Made by a program: the position numbers and the translations under genes. 40,909 nucleotides of DNA from an uncultured Gammaproteobacteria bacterium. Its GTDB lineage: Bacteria; Patescibacteriota; Patescibacteriia; Magasanikbacterales; 2-02-FULL-50-9b. The notes under the pieces are model-generated. The model did no database searches. It had not been told where the DNA came from and was given only the letters and a program-made list of their open reading frames with translations. Location: the NCBI GenBank assembly GCA_964623315.1, contig CAZUSU010000036.1, forward strand, positions 1-40,909, written 5' to 3'. This document shows, in pieces, positions 2,927 to 38,868 of this stretch (positions are counted from its first letter, which is position 1; the number at the start of each line of letters is the position of its first letter).

Positions 2927-3012
2927 ATTAACTTGGATTAATGAATATTGAATTGATTATGCCATAGCTAAAAAATTGCGCAAGCGTCAAAAGTGCATAA
3001 CCATGGGCCTTC

Positions 3013-3085
3013 TGTGGATAATAAAAAAGTTATCCACTGGCAGTGCCGTTTTCCACAGGTTATCCCTGTGGAAATCCGGATAAGT
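3013..3085. promoter_or_regulatory. Cluster of DnaA-box-like 9-mers upstream of gap
   Basis: TGTGGATAA at 3013-3021 is the reverse complement of TTATCCACA (9/9). TTATCCACt at 3030-3038 matches 8/9 and TTtTCCACA at 3049-3057 matches 8/9. Weaker copies are TTATCCctg at 3060-3068, tgtggaaat at 3067-3075 and ccggataag at 3076-3084. An AT-rich stretch lies just upstream (2927-3000). Confidence 0.5.
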
Positions 3086-3093
3086 GCTATAAT
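3085..3093 (+). promoter_or_regulatory. Extended -10 element (TGcTATAAT) of the gap promoter
   Basis: TGCTATAAT lies 24 nt upstream of the gap ATG. There is no SD in the short leader. Confidence 0.55.
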
Positions 3094-3116
3094 ATCGGCA
3101 CATTTCTAAAAACAAT

Positions 3117-4109
3117 ATGGCATCACGTGTAGCAATTAATGGGTTCGGTCGCATTGGTCGTCAGGCGTTTAAGGCGGGGTTTGCTAGAAAGGCAATCAAT
3201 TTTGTCGCAATTAATGATTTGGCGAGCGCCGAGCAGTTGGCATATTTATTAGAATACGATTCCGTGTACGGGCGGTGGCCGCATAAAATTGCGGCGCGCG
3301 GCGGCCTGCTCATAGTGGATGGCAAAAAAATTCCGGTACTCGCAGAAAAAGATCCGGCCGCTCTGCCGTGGAAAAAATTATCCGTTGATGTGGTGGTTGA
3401 ATCTACGGGACGATTCACGGATTCAGCAGGATTGCAAAAACATATTACGGCCGGCGCGCGCGCCGTTATTTTATCTGCGCCGGCAAAAGGCGGCAACGTG
3501 CCAACAGTGGTGCGCGGCGTGAATGATCAAAAATTAGGTCGCCTCAAAATAATTAACAACGCCAGTTGCACCACCAACTGTGTGGCGCCGGTAACCGCCG
3601 TGATACACGAAAATTTTGGCGTGGTTAAAGCCGGCATGACCACCATTCATTCATACACCGCAGATCAAGCACTTGTTGATGGCCCGCACAAAGATTTTCG
3701 GCGCGGTCGTAGCGCCGCACTTAATATGGTGCCCACATCAACCGGCGCCGCGCGCGCCGTTACGGAAACAATCACAGAATTGCGCGGCAAGTTTGATGGG
3801 TGCGCCATTCGCGTGCCGACGCCCTGTGGCTCGCTTTCAGACATCACCTTTGTGACGCGCAAAAAAACTTCTGTTGCACAGGTCAACGCCGCACTGCGCG
3901 CGGCCGCAAAACAAAAACGGTGGAAAGGAATTGTCACCTGTTCTGAAGGCGGCCTTGTTTCGCAGGACATCATCGGCAACACGGCAAGCGCCATTGTTGA
4001 TCTTCAATTCACGCAAGTCATTGACGGCGACCTCGTGAAAATTTTAGCGTGGTATGACAATGAATGGGGGTATGCGCATCGGCTCATGGAAATGGTGGAG
4101 CTGATGTGA
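3117..4109 (+). CDS. gap: Type I glyceraldehyde-3-phosphate dehydrogenase
   Basis: NAD-binding INGFGRIGR, catalytic SCTTNC motif, C-terminal WYDNEWGY. Confidence 0.95.
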   Translation: MASRVAINGFGRIGRQAFKAGFARKAINFVAINDLASAEQLAYLLEYDSVYGRWPHKIAARGGLLIVDGKKIPVLAEKDPAALPWKKLSVDVVVESTGRFTDSAGLQKHITAGARAVILSAPAKGGNVPTVVRGVNDQKLGRLKIINNASCTTNCVAPVTAVIHENFGVVKAGMTTIHSYTADQALVDGPHKDFRRGRSAALNMVPTSTGAARAVTETITELRGKFDGCAIRVPTPCGSLSDITFVTRKKTSVAQVNAALRAAAKQKRWKGIVTCSEGGLVSQDIIGNTASAIVDLQFTQVIDGDLVKILAWYDNEWGYAHRLMEMVELM

Positions 4110-4180
4110 TTATGAATTGTTTGAACGCCCCCACAAAGGTAGTTGACTATTTGTCACTTACCTGATACGCTTTGCTACTT

Positions 4181-5443
4181 ATGACCCCACAACCCAATTC
4201 CACCTTTAACGGCCTTGGCATTGCGCCACGCATGTTAGAAGTGCTCACGCGAGCACAATATACTACGCCAACGCCCATTCAGGCGCAATCCATTCCTGTT
4301 TCCATTACGGGCAAGGATATTGTGGGTATTGCGCAAACCGGAACGGGCAAGACACTGGCGTTTGCCGTGCCGCTCGTGCAACGCATTGTGGCGGCCGGTG
4401 GCGGCCGCGCGCTTATTGTGGTGCCGACGCGCGAGTTGGCGTTGCAAGTAGAAGAAACGATTCAGCGCATTGCGCGTCCGTTCAACATGCGTTCTACGGT
4501 GTTGATTGGTGGCATGTCCATGGGCGGGCAAATTCAACAACTTCGTCGCAACCCCAGTATTATTGTGGCAACACCGGGTCGTCTGCTTGATCATCTTCAG
4601 CAAAAAACCGTGCACCTCCATGACGTACATGCGTTGGTTTTGGACGAAGCTGACCGTATGTTTGATATGGGCTTCATGCCGGCGATCACCAAAATTTTGC
4701 AGGCGCTTCCCAAAGAACGGCAGACCATGTTATTTTCCGCCACCATGCCGCCGGAAATTATGCGGCTCGCCGGCGCACATATGAAAATGCCGGTACGGGT
4801 GGAAGTTGCTCTTGCCGGCACGGCCGCAGAGCGCGTGATGCAGGAAATTATTTTTGTCTCAAAAGAACAGAAAGGCGCACTGCTCACCAAAGTATTAGGT
4901 GAAACGCGCGGCACGGTTTTGGTTTTTTCCCGCACCAAACACGGCGCACGAAAAATTACACGTGCCGTTTCTGCCGCCGGCCACGCGGCCGCAGAAATTC
5001 ATTCGGATCGTACTCTTGCACAACGCCGCCGTGCGCTGGACGGATTTAAAAATGGAACGTATCGCGTGTTGGTTGCCACCGACATCGCGGCGCGTGGTAT
5101 TGATGTCAAAGGCATTGAGCTGGTGTTGAATTATGATTTGCCGGACGCCGCCGAAGATTACGTCCATCGCATTGGTCGCACCGGCCGTGCGGGGCACGAA
5201 GGACACGCCATCTCTTTTGCCACACCGGACCAACGCCGCGATATTGTTTCCATTGAACGGCTCATTCGCAAACAAATTCCGGTTAAGCAGGTAGGTGGTA
5301 TGAGCGCGGCGCCATCGGTTGAGCGGGCGCCGCAATCGCAACGTCGGCCATTTGGCCCGCGTCCCCAACGACCGCGCGGACATTTTGGCAGTCCATCGCG
5401 CGCACCATTCCGTGGATCACGCACCAAACGAACTATCATGTAG
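4181..5443 (+). CDS. DEAD-box ATP-dependent RNA helicase with R/P-rich C-terminal tail
   Basis: Q motif (TPTPIQ), motif I AQTGTGKT, DEAD, SAT and HRIGRTGRAG. ATG at 4181 is preferred over the TTG at 4172. A possible TTGACT-N17-TACGCT promoter at 4143-4171 would make the mRNA nearly leaderless. Confidence 0.9.
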   Translation: MTPQPNSTFNGLGIAPRMLEVLTRAQYTTPTPIQAQSIPVSITGKDIVGIAQTGTGKTLAFAVPLVQRIVAAGGGRALIVVPTRELALQVEETIQRIARPFNMRSTVLIGGMSMGGQIQQLRRNPSIIVATPGRLLDHLQQKTVHLHDVHALVLDEADRMFDMGFMPAITKILQALPKERQTMLFSATMPPEIMRLAGAHMKMPVRVEVALAGTAAERVMQEIIFVSKEQKGALLTKVLGETRGTVLVFSRTKHGARKITRAVSAAGHAAAEIHSDRTLAQRRRALDGFKNGTYRVLVATDIAARGIDVKGIELVLNYDLPDAAEDYVHRIGRTGRAGHEGHAISFATPDQRRDIVSIERLIRKQIPVKQVGGMSAAPSVERAPQSQRRPFGPRPQRPRGHFGSPSRAPFRGSRTKRTIM

Positions 5444-5487: not shown

Positions 5488-6639
5488 ATGCCGCTCCGCA
5501 CACTTTCACGCGCAAAAATTTTATCCGGAACGCGCGTTTTGGTGCGCGTTGATTCTGATGTCGTCGTGTCACACGGCGTCATTGCGCCGGAATCAGCGTA
5601 TCGGCTGGACTGTGCGCTCCCCACACTCAAATTTTTATTACAAAAAAAGGCGCTGGTGACCGTGATGGGTCATCGCGGCCGGCCGAAGGGCAAAAAAGTT
5701 GCCGCACTGTCGCTGGCACCGGTACAAAAATATTTAGAAAAAAAATTAAAAACACGCTTGAAATTTTTGCCCAACGTACGGTTTGACGCGCGAGAAGAAA
5801 AAAATGATCCGGCGTATGCGGCCGAATTGGCCGCCGGCCAGCAACTTTTTGTGAACGAATCATTTGCGACGGCGCATCGCGCGCATGCGTCCACACATGC
5901 CATTACAAAAATGCTCCCCAGCGTGGCCGGATTACAATTTGAAAAAGAAGTGCGCGCTCTGGAGTTAATCCTGAAAGCACCGCGCACGCCACTCGCATTA
6001 ATTATTGGCGGCGCCAAATTGGAAACCAAAATGCCGGTGATTGAAACATTTGCATCGTACGCCGACTACATTTTTATTGTGGGGGCATTGGCGAATGCGT
6101 TTTTTGCCGCACGCGGAGCTCGTATCGGCGACTCGCGCGTTGATGAACCGTCCGTGGCACAAGCGCGCCGCGTGCTGGCAAGCAAAAGATTTGCGCATAA
6201 AATTATTCTCCCCATAGATGTGATGGTCGGCCGCTCACGAGGCGTGTCCAAACAGTTTTGGCAGGTGGCACTGCCGGACGGCGACGGCGACCTTGGCAAA
6301 ATTTGCACCGGCAACCGCGCCATTTTAGATAGCGGACCGGCATCACTTGTGGTGATGTCAGAACTGTTGGTCGCCGCGCGCACCATAATATGGAATGGCC
6401 CGTCCGGCGTTTTTGAACGCGAGCCGTTTCATCTGGGGTCGTACCGAATTGCACGGCTACTTTCTAAACGCGGCCGCGATGGCGCGCACATTGTTGCGGG
6501 TGGCGGTGAAACAGTTACGGCAATCATGCAGGCGCGCGCCATACGTGGCTACGCGCACATTTCAACGGGCGGCGGCGCCCTGTTGGAATTTTTAGGCGGT
6601 AAAAAATTGCCGGCCGTGCAGGCACTATTTTTGAAATAA
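5488..6639 (+). CDS. pgk: Phosphoglycerate kinase
   Basis: 383 aa with NESFATAHRAHAST and a C-terminal STGGGALLEFLGGKKLPAVQAL, both typical of PGK. Confidence 0.92.
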   Translation: MPLRTLSRAKILSGTRVLVRVDSDVVVSHGVIAPESAYRLDCALPTLKFLLQKKALVTVMGHRGRPKGKKVAALSLAPVQKYLEKKLKTRLKFLPNVRFDAREEKNDPAYAAELAAGQQLFVNESFATAHRAHASTHAITKMLPSVAGLQFEKEVRALELILKAPRTPLALIIGGAKLETKMPVIETFASYADYIFIVGALANAFFAARGARIGDSRVDEPSVAQARRVLASKRFAHKIILPIDVMVGRSRGVSKQFWQVALPDGDGDLGKICTGNRAILDSGPASLVVMSELLVAARTIIWNGPSGVFEREPFHLGSYRIARLLSKRGRDGAHIVAGGGETVTAIMQARAIRGYAHISTGGGALLEFLGGKKLPAVQALFLK

Positions 6640-6689
6640 AAGTTATCCACACCTATCCACTTGACAGAATTTAGGTGGTCATATAAACT
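6638..6689 (+). promoter_or_regulatory. Promoter of the large noncoding unit: 13-mer box + TTGACA-N17-TAAACT
   Basis: AAAAGTTATCCAC at 6638-6650 contains a perfect TTATCCACA at 6643-6651, and a second cTATCCACt lies at 6653-6661. The -35 TTGACA is at 6661-6666, followed by a 17-nt spacer and the -10 TAAACT at 6684-6689. The S12 operon promoter at 38840-38868 has the same hexamers and spacing. Confidence 0.6.
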
Positions 6690-6695
6690 ACTCTT

Positions 6696-7791
6696 CACCA
6701 CTTGATAAGTGGTTGCGAAAAAGGAGCTCGTCCAGAGCACCTACGCAAGACCTTGCGACACCCAAAGGGTTCTCCGGTTCTGAACTGGAGGATAACAGGA
6801 GTGAGACGAGGCACTACGGGGGAAGGTTCTAGTGGAAGGTTCCGAAAGGGACTGACCAAACGATTACGATGAGCACTGTAATAATAGGTAACCGGTGCGG
6901 CCGTAATGCTGTGCAGAGGAACTGAATAAAAACAGTGAAGCATCCTTAGACGCAAAAAACTCTCTGATGCAGTCGTTTGTATCAGGTCGTCATCTGTCTT
7001 GTACACGTGGGTGTGCAGGGCTGGTCCTTGAGGCCAAGATGTGCGACGACCTAGCCCGCAAGGGAAGGGTTGAGTCAATGGCTACCGCCGGTAAGATTCG
7101 TGGGAATAAGCGCAAGTAAACTTCCCGAAACGAAAAAGACCAGCTGGAAAAAGGAACTCCCAGTTCCGGCCAGTGAATCCACAAGGGAAAATTGCCAGAC
7201 GCGGCGGTCGTGCAGACCAAAGCAAATCAATCTGGTGACGAGTTCTCAAACGCCTAAATTCGGAGGCGGTGGGGAAGCAAAAGCACGGCTTCGGTCGTGA
7301 AATAGCAACACTCGGGAACAATTCAGCAATGGGTTGTTCACAGCACATTCTCATACATGATACATGAAGAGCGCGTGGTGGAGACATCACATGCACTACA
7401 TGTAGGATGCGCGGGCGATGAGTCCAAGCAATCATGTGGGCGCACTAAGACAGCGCCACGAGAAGACCGAAGTCCAGTCATAAGAACGAGCGGTGTCGCC
7501 CTTACGGGATGACAGTAGAGCCGCTTGTTACGCTAGGTCGCAAGATCGAATGATGTGGTGGTTGGTGTAAAAGCCGCAAGGCAATAAGCCAACAAGCGCA
7601 GGCCTAATCAGAAAGGCCAAAAACGAACGCTGTTGCCGATGACAGTGTGCGTGGCGCGAAAAAATCTACCATCGAATGCCAAGAACTGTTACAGGTTCAT
7701 GGTAAACACCAGTTAAGGTACGTCCATTGTACGTCGTGAACCGCAAGGATCACAACGTACATCAGATGTCCTGACTGGTCGTTTTTTTTTT
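6696..7791 (+). ncRNA. Candidate large (~1.1 kb) structured noncoding RNA, family unknown
   Basis: There is no credible ORF on either strand; the six-frame ORFs are 76-127 aa, overlap each other and are R/P/S-rich. A promoter lies upstream and a T10 run at 7782-7791. Hairpins are dense on the + strand. Examples: 6697-6713; UUCC-GAAA-GGGA 6840-6851; CCC-GCAA-GGG 7055-7064; 6-bp stem with triloop 7153-7167; CACGGC-UUCG-GUCGUG 7284-7299; 7436-7459; GGUC-GCAA-GAUC 7536-7547; GCC-GCAA-GGC 7573-7582. A 32-nt GCAA-capped hairpin spans 7729-7760. A longer-range complement joins 6984-6991 and 7045-7052. The ends are approximate. Confidence 0.5.
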
Positions 7792-7830
7792 ATTTCAAAA
7801 TGCGCTATACTGTTTTTAACATTTTATCGT

Positions 7831-8616
7831 ATGGAACACTGCTCTTCACATTCATGCGCGTCTGCCGGCGGCTCACACGCAAAAAAACCGATTATCGTAT
7901 TGGTCGGTGTTGCGCTGGTAATTTTTTTACTCACACTCATCGCCAGTAACATAAAAAAGTTTCATTATATTGGCCGGCCAGAACCGGTCGCGCGTTCCTT
8001 AACTATTTCTGGCTCCGGTAAAGTAACTGCCACGCCTAATATTGCCGTAACCAATGTTGGCCTTGTGACAGAAAAATCAGATGTTGCCACGGCCCAGCAG
8101 GAAAATTCAGAAAAAATGAACGCGTTGATTGCCGCGCTGAAAGAGCTCAAAATAAAAGACGAAGATATCCGCACCACGCAATATCAAATTTATCCGAAAT
8201 ATTCTTATGAAGAAAAAAAAGGGAGCGCCATAACGGGCTATTCCGTGTCGCAAAGTGTTGAAGTAAAAATTCGCGATCTAAAAAATATTTCAGCAGTGCT
8301 GGCGCGCGCGGGCGAGGCTGGCGCCAATCAAGTGAGTGGTATTACGTTTACCATAGATGAGCCAAAAAATTTGCGTGCGCAGGCGCGAGAGGAAGCGGTC
8401 AAAGACGCCAAAGACAAGGCGGCAAAATTAGCAGAGCAACTGGGAGTAAAATTGGGGCGTGTCATTACGTTTTCCGAATCAGGCGGCGGACAGACACCGG
8501 AGCCGCGGCTTATGTATATGAAGGAAGGGATCGGCGGCGGCGATTCTGCACCCGACATCCAATCCGGATCCCTTGAAATCATCAGTAACGTTGACGTTAC
8601 TTTTGAACTAAAATAA
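7831..8616 (+). CDS. SIMPL/DUF541-family secreted or membrane-anchored protein
   Basis: N-terminal TM segment (IIVLVGVALVIFLLTLIA), then LTISGSGKVTATPNIAVTNVGLV...AQQENSEKMNALIAALKEL...GYSVSQSVEVKIRDL, typical of 26-kDa periplasmic immunogenic protein/SIMPL domains. Confidence 0.75.
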   Translation: MEHCSSHSCASAGGSHAKKPIIVLVGVALVIFLLTLIASNIKKFHYIGRPEPVARSLTISGSGKVTATPNIAVTNVGLVTEKSDVATAQQENSEKMNALIAALKELKIKDEDIRTTQYQIYPKYSYEEKKGSAITGYSVSQSVEVKIRDLKNISAVLARAGEAGANQVSGITFTIDEPKNLRAQAREEAVKDAKDKAAKLAEQLGVKLGRVITFSESGGGQTPEPRLMYMKEGIGGGDSAPDIQSGSLEIISNVDVTFELK

Positions 8617-8618
8617 CT

Positions 8619-9854
8619 ATGCACAAAATCACCGCCCTTGAAGCGCAAGAAATTCTTGATTCGCGCGGTAACCCCACCATACGCGTTTTCATTCAGGTGG
8701 ATGATGCCATTTTAACGAGCGCGGCCGTGCCGAGCGGCGCATCAACCGGTACGCACGAAGCGTGGGAGTTGCGCGATGGCGATAAAAAACGGTTTGGCGG
8801 CAAAGGTGTGTTAAAAGCCGTTCACAACGTGGAAAAAGTTATTGCGCCAAAATTAATGGGGAGGGATGTGTGCGGCCAGCGCGCCATTGATACCATTCTG
8901 CGCACGCTTGACGGAACCAAAAATAAATCAAAACTGGGTGCCAACGCCATTTTGGGCGTGTCCTTGGCATGCGCGCGCGCCGGCGCCATGGCTACCGGTA
9001 TGCCCCTGTGGAAATATTTGCAAAAAACGTATCGCTTAAAAGCGAGTAAAAAATTTCCGTACCCCACCATGAACGTCATTAACGGTGGCGTGCATGCTGA
9101 TTCCGGTTTATCAACGCAAGAGTTCATGATCATTCCGCAGAACAAAAAATTCAGCGAGCGGGTGCGCGTGGGAGCAGAAGTTTTTGCCCAGCTCAAAAAA
9201 ATACTGAAAGATGAAAAATTTTCCGTTGGCGTGGGGGACGAAGGCGGATTTGCGCCGCGTCTGGGATCGTCGGAAAAAGCTCTGCAAGTTTTGATGTCTG
9301 CCATTCAGCAAGCCGGCTACCAGCCGGGCCGTGACGTGAAATTAGGCACGGACGTTGCCGCATCTGAATTTTATGAAAAAGGCGTCTACAACTTTGAGGG
9401 CAAGAAAAAATCCGGCGCGCAGATGATTGAGATGATTGCCGAATGGGTGCAAAAATATCCGCTCGTGTCCGTGGAAGATCCGCTTCACGAAGATGATTGG
9501 GAGCACTGGGAAAAAATTACGGCAAAACTGGGGCGCACCATTACCATTGTTGGCGATGATTTGTTTGTTACCAACGTTGAACGTTTGCGGCAGGGGATTA
9601 AGCGTCACGTGGCTAATGCCATTCTCATAAAAGTCAATCAGATCGGCACATTGTCAGAAACGATTGACACTATTTTGTTGGCGCAGAAAAACAGATATAA
9701 AGTTTCGGTTTCGCACAGGAGTGGTGAAACAGCCGATACGTTTATTGCCGACTTGGCCGTTGCCGTGGGCGCTGAATTTTTGAAGTCCGGATCGCTATCG
9801 CGCAGTGAGCGCGTGGAAAAATATAATCGGGTGATGGAAATTGCAGAAAATTGA
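8619..9854 (+). CDS. eno: Enolase (phosphopyruvate hydratase)
   Basis: N-terminal ILDSRGNPT, then SGETADTFIADLAVA and IKVNQIGTLSET. Starts 2 nt after the SIMPL gene stop. Confidence 0.95.
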   Translation: MHKITALEAQEILDSRGNPTIRVFIQVDDAILTSAAVPSGASTGTHEAWELRDGDKKRFGGKGVLKAVHNVEKVIAPKLMGRDVCGQRAIDTILRTLDGTKNKSKLGANAILGVSLACARAGAMATGMPLWKYLQKTYRLKASKKFPYPTMNVINGGVHADSGLSTQEFMIIPQNKKFSERVRVGAEVFAQLKKILKDEKFSVGVGDEGGFAPRLGSSEKALQVLMSAIQQAGYQPGRDVKLGTDVAASEFYEKGVYNFEGKKKSGAQMIEMIAEWVQKYPLVSVEDPLHEDDWEHWEKITAKLGRTITIVGDDLFVTNVERLRQGIKRHVANAILIKVNQIGTLSETIDTILLAQKNRYKVSVSHRSGETADTFIADLAVAVGAEFLKSGSLSRSERVEKYNRVMEIAEN

Positions 9855-10020: not shown

Positions 10021-11577
10021 ATGATAAGCAAACCTGTTGTATTAATCATCAATGACGGTTGGGGAGTTGCGCCAGACAGCGAAGGCAACGCCATCACGCG
10101 CGCTAAGACGCCGAATTTTTTGGATTGGATTCATCGCTATCCGGCAATGACCATAAAAGCGTCCGGCATAGAAGTCGGTTTGTCGTGGGGCGAGATGGGA
10201 AATTCTGAAGTGGGACATTTAAATATCGGCGCCGGTCGCGTGTACTACCAAACGCTTCCACGCATCAGCAAAGAAATCAGCGACAAAAGCTTTTTTAAAA
10301 ACGCCGTACTGCAAAAAATTGCGGCGCACGGAAAAAAGGGCGGGCGCGTGCATTTGTTTGGCATTGTGTCGGCTGGCAATGTGCACGGGTCCGATGAGCA
10401 CCTTGCCGCGCTCATAGATTTTTGTAAAGCAGAAGGGGTCGCAAACGTTTTTTTGCATGCCATTCTGGACGGACGCGATTCAAAATTTGATTCCGGCAAA
10501 ATGTTCATTGAACGCACGATGGCTAAAATGAAGTCCGTGGGTGTGGGAAAAATTGCCACCATGGGCGGTCGCTACTTTGCCATGGATCGCGACAACCGCT
10601 GGGAGCGCGTAGAAAAAATGTATCGCGTCATGACCGAAGCGGTGGGCGAAAAAGCGCCGGATCCGCTTGCCGCCATACAAAAATCGTATGACGCAAAAGT
10701 GTATGATGAAGAATTCGTGCCCGTGGTGTGCGATCCTGATGGCCAGATAAAATCCGGCGATGCCGTGCTGTTTTTTAATTTTCGTCCGGATCGTGCGCGT
10801 GAAATCACCAAAGCATTTGTTGACCCGACATTTGATAAATTTAAGCGCGCCCAAATTGACCCCTTATTATTTGTTACGATGACCGAATACGAAAAAGGTT
10901 TGCCGGTAGAAGCTTGTTATCCGCCGGACGTCATAAAAATGTCGCTCGCGGAAACCATTTCCAAAGCCGGCAAAAAACAATTTCACCTCGCAGAAACGGA
11001 AAAATATGCGCACGTCACTTTTTTTCTGAACGGCACGGTAGAAGAGGCATGGGCGGGCGAGGATCGTAAAATTGTACCGTCGCCTAAAGTGGAAAGTTAT
11101 GCGACAGCGCCGGAAATGTCTGCCGCCGGAGTTGCCGTGGAAGCCGTTAAAGCAATAGAAAGCGATGTATATGATTTTGTCGTCATCAATTTTGCGAACG
11201 CCGACATGGTGGGTCACACCGGCGATTTTGCCGCAACCGTAAAAGGAATTGAAGCGGTGGATAAAGCGATGGGGCAGGTGGTCGCTATCACGGTTGCAAA
11301 AGGCGGCGCTGTTTTTATTACCGCAGACCACGGCAATGGCGAAGAAATTGTGAACGTCCGCACGGGCGATAAAGACAAAGAGCACTCCACCAACCCCATC
11401 CCCTTTTTGTGTATCAGTAAGGCATGGGAAGGGCAAGCCGGTCCGTCCGGTGACATCGTGGGCGATGACTTATCTCTGTTGCCACCCGTTGGCATGCTGG
11501 CGGACGTGGCGCCTACTATTTTAAAAGCACTGGGCGTTGAACAGCCGAAAGAAATGACGGGGAGGGCGCTGATTTGA
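10021..11577 (+). CDS. gpmI: 2,3-bisphosphoglycerate-independent phosphoglycerate mutase
   Basis: 518 aa with LIINDGWG, NSEVGHLNIGAGR, ILDGRDS, NFANADMVGHTG and ITADHGN motifs. Confidence 0.93.
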   Translation: MISKPVVLIINDGWGVAPDSEGNAITRAKTPNFLDWIHRYPAMTIKASGIEVGLSWGEMGNSEVGHLNIGAGRVYYQTLPRISKEISDKSFFKNAVLQKIAAHGKKGGRVHLFGIVSAGNVHGSDEHLAALIDFCKAEGVANVFLHAILDGRDSKFDSGKMFIERTMAKMKSVGVGKIATMGGRYFAMDRDNRWERVEKMYRVMTEAVGEKAPDPLAAIQKSYDAKVYDEEFVPVVCDPDGQIKSGDAVLFFNFRPDRAREITKAFVDPTFDKFKRAQIDPLLFVTMTEYEKGLPVEACYPPDVIKMSLAETISKAGKKQFHLAETEKYAHVTFFLNGTVEEAWAGEDRKIVPSPKVESYATAPEMSAAGVAVEAVKAIESDVYDFVVINFANADMVGHTGDFAATVKGIEAVDKAMGQVVAITVAKGGAVFITADHGNGEEIVNVRTGDKDKEHSTNPIPFLCISKAWEGQAGPSGDIVGDDLSLLPPVGMLADVAPTILKALGVEQPKEMTGRALI

Positions 11578-38839: not shown

Positions 38840-38868
38840 TTGACACTATTCGTACAATCCTATAAACT
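38840..38868 (+). promoter_or_regulatory. Promoter of the rpsL-rpsG-fusA operon (TTGACA-N17-TAAACT)
   Basis: TTGACA at 38840-38845, 17-nt spacer, TAAACT at 38863-38868. A leader hairpin CACGGC...GCCGTG lies upstream of rpsL. Confidence 0.6.

Follow-up and report, generated by a model that had tools for sequence, protein, structure and literature searches.

A gene-free unit between pgk and SIMPL in a Magasanikbacteria-like bacterium probably encodes a new large structured RNA

The window analysed here is a 40,909-nt stretch of contig CAZUSU010000036.1 (assembly GCA_964623315.1, forward strand) from an uncultured, Magasanikbacteria-like bacterium of the candidate phyla radiation (CPR) with a small genome. 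Its glycolytic gene cluster lies on the + strand throughout, in the order gap (3117-4109), a DEAD-box RNA helicase gene (4172-5443), pgk (5488-6639; Pfam PGK, 5.6e-92), a SIMPL/DUF541 gene (7831-8616; Pfam 2.3e-58), eno (8619-9854) and gpmI (10021-11577). Between pgk and SIMPL, the next credible gene downstream, lies a gap of 1,191 nt. A preliminary description of this DNA, made from its letters alone, had reported about 1.19 kb without a plausible gene between the pgk stop (6639) and the next credible start (7831), and had proposed a giant structured RNA at this place; Pfam searches and open reading frame (ORF) calls agree with the first of these statements. We find that the gap holds a unit, here termed the pgk-SIMPL element, which is probably a new large structured RNA and of which only three copies were found. 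The predicted transcript of about 1,095 nt runs from 6697 to 7791 on the + strand, its 5' end being placed from the -10 box and its 3' end from the U-run.

A protein search with pgk returned about 22 relatives with 54-69% identity, one of them labelled Candidatus Magasanikbacteria, and we compared the contigs of eight pgk relatives and of two further relatives found through SIMPL, which lack the element. Species-representative genome contigs contained only distant pgk genes (≤39% identity), and a search with the C-terminal fragment of pgk gave only distant fragments. The order gap-pgk-SIMPL-eno-gpmI is conserved in the relatives and the pgk|SIMPL junction is variable. Two contigs, L043 and L051, whose pgk is 67-69% identical to that of the window, carry sequence that is colinear with the window element, as detected by blastn and MAFFT. 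In L043 it occupies a 1,270-nt gene-free gap after pgk (~7185-8395), and in L051 it lies within the at least 1,300 nt that follow pgk before the contig end (~2954-4066). SIMPL follows pgk within 27-49 nt in L046/L047, L050, L052, L053, L190-L193 and L194. In a neighbour-joining tree of pgk, the three genomes with the element group together as a single clade. Together with the relatives that have no element, this indicates a clade-specific insertion at a junction that accepts insertions. A second SIMPL protein (P0267), which falls into the 90% cluster of L043's SIMPL, is encoded on a 1,886-nt Logan contig, which may include the 3' portion of the element in a fourth copy.

Two other contigs have long sequences at the same junction, and both were rejected as copies, being unrelated to the element. 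The 747-nt gap of L044 contains a 125-aa ORFan followed by a long near-perfect palindrome (7219-7596 and 7700-7840), and L048 (7267-8127, equivalent to L049 2379-3239) encodes a very acidic 286-aa ORFan with an N-terminal hydrophobic segment and no Pfam or PADLOC match. Judging from these contigs, the pgk|SIMPL junction is an insertion hot spot. In the window, the element is bracketed exactly by two 13-nt sequences that form a perfect inverted repeat (TTTTGAAATAAAA/TTTTATTTCAAAA; 6629-6641/7788-7800), one arm lying at the pgk stop and the other where the T-run ends. Inspection by eye of the L043 flanks revealed no equivalent, and the repeat is probably a chance occurrence in AT-rich sequence. 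The DEAD-box helicase gene lies between gap and pgk in the window only, and gap abuts pgk in L043 and L051. Since it is missing from this position in both homologous loci, the helicase does not have the standing of a conserved RNA partner, even though it is encoded 1.2 kb upstream of the element.

The unit begins with a sigma-70-type promoter, TTGACA-N17-TAAACT (6661-6689, + strand), which matches 10 of the 12 consensus positions and has a 17-nt spacing. The preliminary description had placed it here and had pointed to the same hexamers and spacing in front of rpsL; the sole other copy in the window is indeed found at 38840-38868, 72 nt upstream of rpsL (Pfam S12), at a chance expectation of 0.02 copies for this pattern in the window. 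L043 has the same hexamers and spacing at 7149-7177 and L051 has TACACT at 2919-2947, and TTGACA-N17-TA(A/C)ACT is kept in all three copies. In L043 the called pgk ORF passes through the TTATCCCCA motif and stops at a TGA inside the -35 hexamer (cacTTGAca; 7125-7152), and the RNA promoter overlaps the 3' end of pgk in this genome.

A motif resembling the DnaA-box consensus, GTTATCCACA, is located at 6642-6651 (+ strand), 10 nt upstream of the -35 hexamer, with a second, weaker copy, CTATCCACT, beside it (6653-6661, + strand). Positions 6643-6651 read as the perfect DnaA-box consensus TTATCCACA. Counterparts occur at the same place in L043 (GTTATCCCCA) and L051 (GTTATCCACA), and in all three copies the DnaA-box consensus GTTATCCAC(A) precedes the -35 hexamer at a distance of 10 nt. 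Upstream of gap in the window, L043, L048 and L051 the motif occurs in clusters, some copies being arranged as palindromes such as TGTGGATAA-N8-TTATCCAC and TTTCCACAGG-N5-CCTGTGGAAA. Its positions are 3013-3075 and 6642-6661 in the window, 4933-4957 and 7130 in L043, 4886-4911 in L048, and 643 and 2900 in L051. The rpsL promoter lacks the TTATCCAC(A) motif, as do L046, L050, L052 and L190; among the relatives without the RNA element, only L048 has it. The motif may be an operator, for DnaA or another regulator, which the gap promoter and the RNA promoter share.

At the opposite end of the unit, an interrupted, GCAA-capped hairpin of about 30 bp (7704-7781) is followed by U10 (7782-7791), the T10 run of the preliminary description. 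Both the minimum free energy (MFE) of the hairpin, -38.7 kcal/mol (z = -6.2), and the homologues identify this as an intrinsic terminator on the + strand (7704-7791). L043 and L051 have the same architecture with a UUCG cap, another stem sequence and U7, and eight pairs of the terminator helix (helix 38) are changed on both sides. The SIMPL start codon follows the U-run at a distance of about 40 nt. This interval lies outside the RNA and includes the -10 box GCTATACT of the SIMPL-eno-gpmI promoter (7803-7812, + strand). Relatives without the element have TGCTATACT or TGCTATAAT, a -10 box of the TGCTATAMT type, directly after the pgk stop, and the window and L043 retain the box downstream of the element's terminator. 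By this comparison the SIMPL -10 box is ancestral. At the level of the sequence, the unit possesses its own promoter and its own intrinsic terminator, both conserved in the homologues, as an independent bacterial non-coding RNA (ncRNA) gene does.

No coding signal was detected within these boundaries. The ORFs within 6640-7830 (127, 117, 76 and 76 aa) overlap one another on both strands and have no Pfam match, which reproduces the earlier view that they are not genes. Their codon log-odds range from -0.19 to -0.63 bits per codon, compared with +0.33 to +0.48 for the real genes of the window; the log-odds are negative in all six frames of the element, and the period-3 power is 1.1 as against 7-20 in real genes. 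The 127-aa ORF has no relatives among 1.84 billion representative proteins, and alternative genetic codes (other stop-codon sets) open no long frame on the + strand. A six-frame comparison with the L043 and L051 copies revealed neither an intact ORF nor frame-consistent similarity. Instead, short matches appeared in several frames and on both strands simultaneously, the mark of conservation at the nucleotide and not the protein level. By eye, no pair of Shine-Dalgarno sequence and start codon was seen at aligned positions of the three copies. The element therefore has none of the reading frame, codon bias, three-base periodicity and protein homologues by which a protein-coding gene or pseudogene is recognised. 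A decayed gene was rejected on the grounds of the negative codon log-odds, the missing frame-consistent similarity and the lack of protein relatives. The preliminary description had held that homologues with an intact ORF or a codon-like substitution pattern would speak against an RNA; neither occurs in L043 or L051.

The element also has no match among known RNA families. We searched Rfam 15, whose 4,227 covariance models include OLE, GOLLD, ROOL, HEARO, RNase P, transfer-messenger RNA (tmRNA), introns, signal recognition particle (SRP) RNA, 6S, rRNA and riboswitches. At the gathering score there was no match in the window region, L043, L044, L048 or L051. At E ≤ 10 the window gave three chance-level matches of 16-18 bits against thresholds of 65-66 (a microRNA, an S. 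pyogenes small RNA and a human long non-coding RNA), and L043 and L051 gave none. As far as covariance models see, OLE, GOLLD, ROOL, HEARO, RNase P, tmRNA, group I and II introns, SRP, 6S, rRNA fragments and known riboswitches are excluded. ARAGORN found no tRNA or tmRNA in 6500-7900. The preliminary description had named a significant Rfam match as an outcome that would refute it, and none was obtained; its statement that signatures of RNase P, tmRNA, group II introns, SRP and rRNA are missing holds. For group II introns, neither Intron_gpII nor group-II-D1D4 matched at E ≤ 10, the predicted 5' end is ACCACUU, the site is intergenic and there is no reverse transcriptase (RT) ORF; group I introns gave no Rfam signal. 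The element contains no tandem or interspersed repeats, which rules out guide arrays of the TIGR type.

Searches for further copies were likewise negative. Phage and plasmid collections gave no match by blastn, and pattern scans of viral contigs returned chance matches only. Metagenome scans with the pattern AAGACAG-N5-8-GAGANGACCGAAGTC gave 0 matches, and those with AAGGGTTNNNNGGTNCTGAACTGG gave 11, all of them chance, in which nhmmer with a three-sequence profile found nothing. A covariance model of the 5' domain, run over 327 kb of collected loci, recovered only the three copies. A candidate at L042 9848-9985 (13.9-18.8 bits) was rejected, as it lies inside an ORF and noise of similar score occurs elsewhere in that locus. 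Full-text literature searches gave no description of a large ncRNA in CPR/Patescibacteria.

Conservation of the element was judged against the neighbouring gene. Among the three genomes, the pgk proteins are 67-77% identical and 4-fold degenerate sites of pgk are 42-45% identical, close to saturation. Against this neutral background, the conserved islands of the element show 57-88% identity. The promoter is 65-68% identical among the copies. The 5' domain is 57% identical to the window in each of the two homologues and 85% identical between L043 and L051; the islands at hairpins H5 and H6 reach 57-86% and 64-76%, respectively. The most conserved part of the RNA is the island AAGACAG-N6-7-GAGAWGACCGAAGUC, with 72-88% pairwise identity. 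The linkers are at or below neutral identity (29-40% in comparisons with the window, up to 59% between L043 and L051) and contain many indels whose lengths are not multiples of three. Islands that stand above near-saturated neutral sites indicate purifying selection on the promoter, the terminator and the internal islands.

Several measures of folding distinguish the + strand of the element from its surroundings. In base composition it is purine-rich, as had been noted before (A 29.6%, G 28.0%, U 20.0%). Its MFE is -411.6 kcal/mol, compared with -343.1 kcal/mol for the - strand, so that the + strand folds better by 68 kcal/mol. In 250-nt windows, z-scores against dinucleotide shuffles range from -1.6 to -4.8 across 6525-7899 on the + strand; those of the - strand are mostly near 0, with a few windows at -1.7 to -3.8. 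Flanking pgk and SIMPL-eno are mostly near 0 as well, with the exception of the first ~300 nt of pgk (-2.7 to -2.9). The z-scores of the L043 and L051 copies are likewise negative throughout on the + strand. The hairpins with GCAA, GAAA or UUCG caps and those with 6-8 bp stems that the preliminary description had listed are all present at the positions it gave. Five hairpins that combine a GNRA or UNCG cap with a stem of 4 bp or more occur in the window element, compared with 1.25 ± 1.13 in dinucleotide shuffles (5 is reached in 4 of 500). The homologues are enriched too, with 5 against 1.34 in L043 and 7 against 0.99 in L051, and no excess was found on the - strand or in pgk or eno.

The three-way alignment indicates that the structure itself is conserved. 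The consensus energy of the whole transcript (RNAalifold) is -144.8 kcal/mol, compared with -84.5 ± 7.6 kcal/mol for 60 column-shuffled alignments (z about -8). Pairs that are canonical in all three sequences number 122, against 95 ± 8 in shuffled alignments (z about 3.4), and 42 of them are compensatory, against 29 ± 5 (z about 2.7). With the partners of the RNAalifold structure slid, the paired fraction falls from 85.6% to 34-38% and the compensatory pairs from 75 to 10-15; these controls are partly circular, as they test the structure on the very alignment that it came from. In sliding windows of 150 alignment columns, scored by RNAalifold energy against column-shuffled controls, the 5' domain gave z-scores of -3.6 and -5.5 on the + strand and +0.4 and +0.7 on the - strand. 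Values were -2.4 to -6.4 in the middle of the alignment (columns ~400-650) and -6.4 at the 3' end. A home-made structure-profile alignment reached a consensus energy of -165.6 kcal/mol, with the variable regions still unsettled. Compensatory substitutions thus exceed those of the null models, at a level that is weak by R-scape standards with three sequences. The preliminary description had regarded a lack of conservation or covariation in related genomes as grounds for abandoning the RNA. L043 and L051 instead contain colinear islands above the neutral level, energies below those of shuffled alignments and compensatory changes in individual helices.

About ten helices are conserved, several of them with compensatory changes, and those that we regard as established are P1-P4, H5, a closing helix, H6, H7, H10 and the terminator hairpin (7704-7781). 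P1-P4 make up the 5' domain (6697-6811, + strand), the best conserved part of the transcript. P1 (6697-6713) and P2 (6714-6747) are followed by P3 (6753-6758/6806-6811), which encloses P4 (6769-6793), a hairpin of 10-11 bp with the loop UCUGA. In a fixed four-helix model of 38 pairs, 89.5% of cells are paired, compared with 33-43% when partners are slid, and 6 of the 38 pairs are changed on both sides, compared with 0-2. The covariance model of this domain (R1) gives 131-173 bits for the three copies, the same sequences on which it was trained. In L043 (~7243-7290) and L051 (~3012-3058), P4 is flanked by CCUAAG on the 5' side and UACGG on the 3' side, strands which we take to resemble a near-canonical 11-nt GAAA-tetraloop receptor; their counterparts in the window are CCCAAAG and UAACAGG. 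This receptor-like internal loop hints at tertiary contacts.

Downstream of the 5' domain, all features likewise lie on the + strand. H5 (UCUGAUGCAG / UUUGUAUCAGG; 6963-6986) has 10 pairs, which are 100% paired in all three sequences, with one compensatory pair (U-A vs C-G) and three one-sided changes. A branched sub-domain (6984-7052) is closed by the 8-bp long-range complement 6984-6991/7045-7052, which had been described before and is exact in the window. In the structure-aware alignment its arms, judged by eye and without a formal count, also pair in L043 (UCACU/AGUGA) and L051 (UCGC/GCGA). H6 (GGAACU-CCC-AGUUCC; 7152-7168) has seven pairs, with 90% of cells paired, an invariant core GGAAC/GUUCC and one compensatory pair at the loop end. 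H7 (7192-7238; helices 20-22) pairs 7192-7199 with 7231-7238 around a small hairpin, GGUC-GUGCA-GACC; its 8 pairs are 96% paired and include one compensatory pair and two one-sided changes. H10 (7436-7443/7453-7459), together with the conserved block that follows it (7460-7475), forms the most conserved island (7436-7475). Its loop presents an invariant AAGACA, and 15 of the 16 positions of the block, GAGA(A/U)GACCGAAGUC, are invariant. In the H10 stem, covariation can be seen by eye (window GGGCGC/GCGCC, L043 GGUGC/GCACC); MAFFT mis-aligns its 5' arm, which precludes formal counts. The block CGAGAAGACCGAAGU (7460-7475) matches what we take to be the 3' half of the 23S sarcin-ricin loop at 14 of 16 positions. 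We judge this coincidental and reject the identity, since the 5' AGUA strand of the bulged-G motif is missing.

As a whole, these observations are best explained, and in our judgement with somewhat better than even probability, by a self-contained gene for a non-coding, highly structured RNA of about 1,095 nt, which represents an undescribed family restricted to a single clade and would act in trans. The earlier proposal of a giant structured RNA is supported by the null result with Rfam, the lack of an ORF, the conserved islands and the conserved structure. Transcription would start about 7 nt after a strong housekeeping-type promoter with rpsL-type hexamers, and the 5' end of the RNA would fold at once into the terminal hairpin P1. 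At the 3' end, the long hairpin and the U-tract would act as a terminator. The unit would be transcribed as a discrete, abundant RNA of about 1.1 kb, both ends of which would be protected by terminal hairpins. The conserved core would consist of the four-helix 5' domain of ~115 nt, H5, H6, H7, H10, AAGACA and GAGAWGACCGAAGUC, stretches that are largely invariant, interspersed with fast-evolving, length-variable stems that are stably folded in each genome. The invariant loops would contact a partner or make tertiary or quaternary contacts, and the RNA would act in trans as a folded scaffold or ribonucleoprotein (RNP) component, as do RNAs of the OLE, GOLLD and ROOL type. Its expression may be tied to the glycolytic cluster via the operator-like TTATCCAC motif that it has in common with the gap promoter. 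The gene would have been acquired a single time, having inserted between pgk and the SIMPL promoter in the ancestor from which one small Magasanikbacteria-like clade descends.

A number of points weigh against this interpretation. Only three copies were found, two of which (L043 and L051) are closer to each other. For this reason almost every compensatory change is a single event that separates the window from L043 and L051, and compensatory pairs outnumber those of a fair null by a modest margin (z about 2.7). About 60% of the sequence cannot be aligned with confidence, so that the secondary structure given here is incomplete. At least six sequenced relatives share the gene order but have no element, which implies that the element is dispensable for the lineage at large, and the junction it occupies also accepts other, unrelated insertions (L044, L048/L049). 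No partner protein gene is linked to the element, and we infer its action in trans and its scaffold function by analogy only.

Known giant RNAs are summarised in PMC12286853, according to which GOLLD (~800 nt) and ROOL (~580 nt) form homo-oligomeric RNA-only assemblies. The pgk-SIMPL element is most likely of the same general kind as OLE, GOLLD and ROOL without being a member of any known family. It resembles GOLLD and ROOL as a giant ornate ncRNA with many GNRA-capped helices that is accessory in character and patchily distributed. GOLLD and ROOL are frequently associated with prophages or tRNA genes; the element differs in having no Rfam match and no phage similarity, and the only tRNA in the window is 15 kb away. 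OLE RNA (RF01071) has about 610 nt and is found in anaerobic or extremophilic Firmicutes. Like the pgk-SIMPL element, OLE is a bacterial ncRNA of large size that stands alone, is highly structured and combines a conserved core with variable stems. Presumed to be abundant and of unclear biochemical role, it provides, as an RNP scaffold, the best analogy for how the present RNA may work. The element is, however, almost twice as long, resides in a CPR host and has no covariance-model match at E ≤ 10. OLE RNA is accompanied by genes for membrane-protein partners of the oapA type; the flanks of the element comprise gap, the DEAD-box helicase gene, pgk, SIMPL, eno and gpmI, with no oapA-type gene, and do not show the OLE association.

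RNase P RNA, tmRNA and group I and II introns share with the element their size class, an A-rich and U-poor composition and GNRA loops, as well as, possibly, the internal loop that resembles a tetraloop receptor in the L043 and L051 copies of the 5' domain. They differ from it in that none of their Rfam models matches at E ≤ 10, no tmRNA was found, the location is intergenic without exons, and there is no RT or maturase ORF. Long 5' leaders and riboswitch-attenuators share the arrangement of promoter, structured RNA and intrinsic terminator upstream of same-strand metabolic genes. The element is 5-10 times longer than known leaders, has no match to a known aptamer, and its downstream genes have an independent ancestral promoter.

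Among the alternatives, a selfish or relic insertion, that is, mobile-element cargo or a decaying acquired gene whose stable folding is incidental or self-serving, is unlikely but survives best. It would account for the patchy distribution in one clade only, the unrelated inserts at the same junction in L044 and L048 and the perfect inverted repeat around the unit in the window. On the other hand, the L043 flanks have no matching repeat by eye, and the element has no similarity to phage or plasmid records or to viral contigs. A Pfam scan of the neighbouring genes found no transposase, RT or integrase near the element, Rfam gave no group I or II intron signal, and there is no protein-level trace. 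Moreover, purifying selection on the promoter, the terminator and the islands, despite saturated synonymous sites, is not expected of a decaying relic.

A little less probable still is a function in cis, in which the unit would be a giant leader, an insulator or a processing module for SIMPL-eno-gpmI (for example through conditional terminator read-through), or a stabiliser of the pgk message. Its same-strand position inside the glycolytic gene cluster, the TTATCCAC motif in common with the gap promoter and the short distance from U-run to SIMPL start codon would all fit. The terminator, however, is strong and conserved, with a stem of ~30 bp followed by U7-U10, and SIMPL has its own ancestral -10 box, which is also present in relatives without the element. 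The downstream genes are identically arranged without the element in at least six relatives, and the element matches none of the known riboswitch or leader families. A long 5' leader of the SIMPL-eno transcript, the fallback of the preliminary description, is disfavoured because of this strong conserved terminator and the independent ancestral SIMPL promoter.

That the unit is a DNA-level element, such as a DnaA-binding or replication/segregation site, and not an RNA gene, is very improbable. The perfect DnaA box at 6643-6651, its conservation in the homologues and the cluster of boxes upstream of gap are in its favour. Yet there are just one or two boxes, all upstream of the promoter and none inside the element, and the absence of both an AT-rich unwinding region (GC 0.49-0.55) and a GC-skew switch led us to reject a replication origin. 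The strand asymmetry of folding, the dependence of 5'-domain helices on G.U pairs, the promoter and the terminator point to an RNA product. Finally, a dual-function or mis-annotated region encoding a small protein is scarcely credible: short + strand ORFs of 50-76 aa exist, but none is conserved in L043 or L051, the codon log-odds are negative in six frames, the period-3 power is 1.1, and no aligned Shine-Dalgarno and start pair was seen by eye.

A large structured ncRNA thus remains our preferred explanation for the pgk-SIMPL element. More tentatively, and at somewhat less than an even chance, it could be the first representative of a new class of ornate bacterial RNAs of giant size (>1 kb). 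Such an RNA would be longer than OLE, ROOL or GOLLD, belong to an ultra-small CPR clade, be co-regulated with glycolysis via a DnaA-box-like operator, and act as a folded, possibly multimeric, machine or scaffold and not by base-pairing.

To our knowledge, very few bacterial non-ribosomal RNAs exceed 500 nt. RNase P, tmRNA, OLE, GOLLD and ROOL have each proved to be a ribozyme, the core of an RNP or an RNA-only assembly without precedent. CPR genomes are about 1 Mb in size and under strong reduction. A 1.1-kb non-coding gene with a promoter of ribosomal-protein grade would be a large investment in such a genome and would imply a real function. If the interpretation is correct, the short list of giant structured RNAs would gain a new family and extend to the CPR, structural biology would have a new target, and the TTATCCAC motif in common with the gap promoter would offer a testable link between a large ncRNA and central carbon metabolism.

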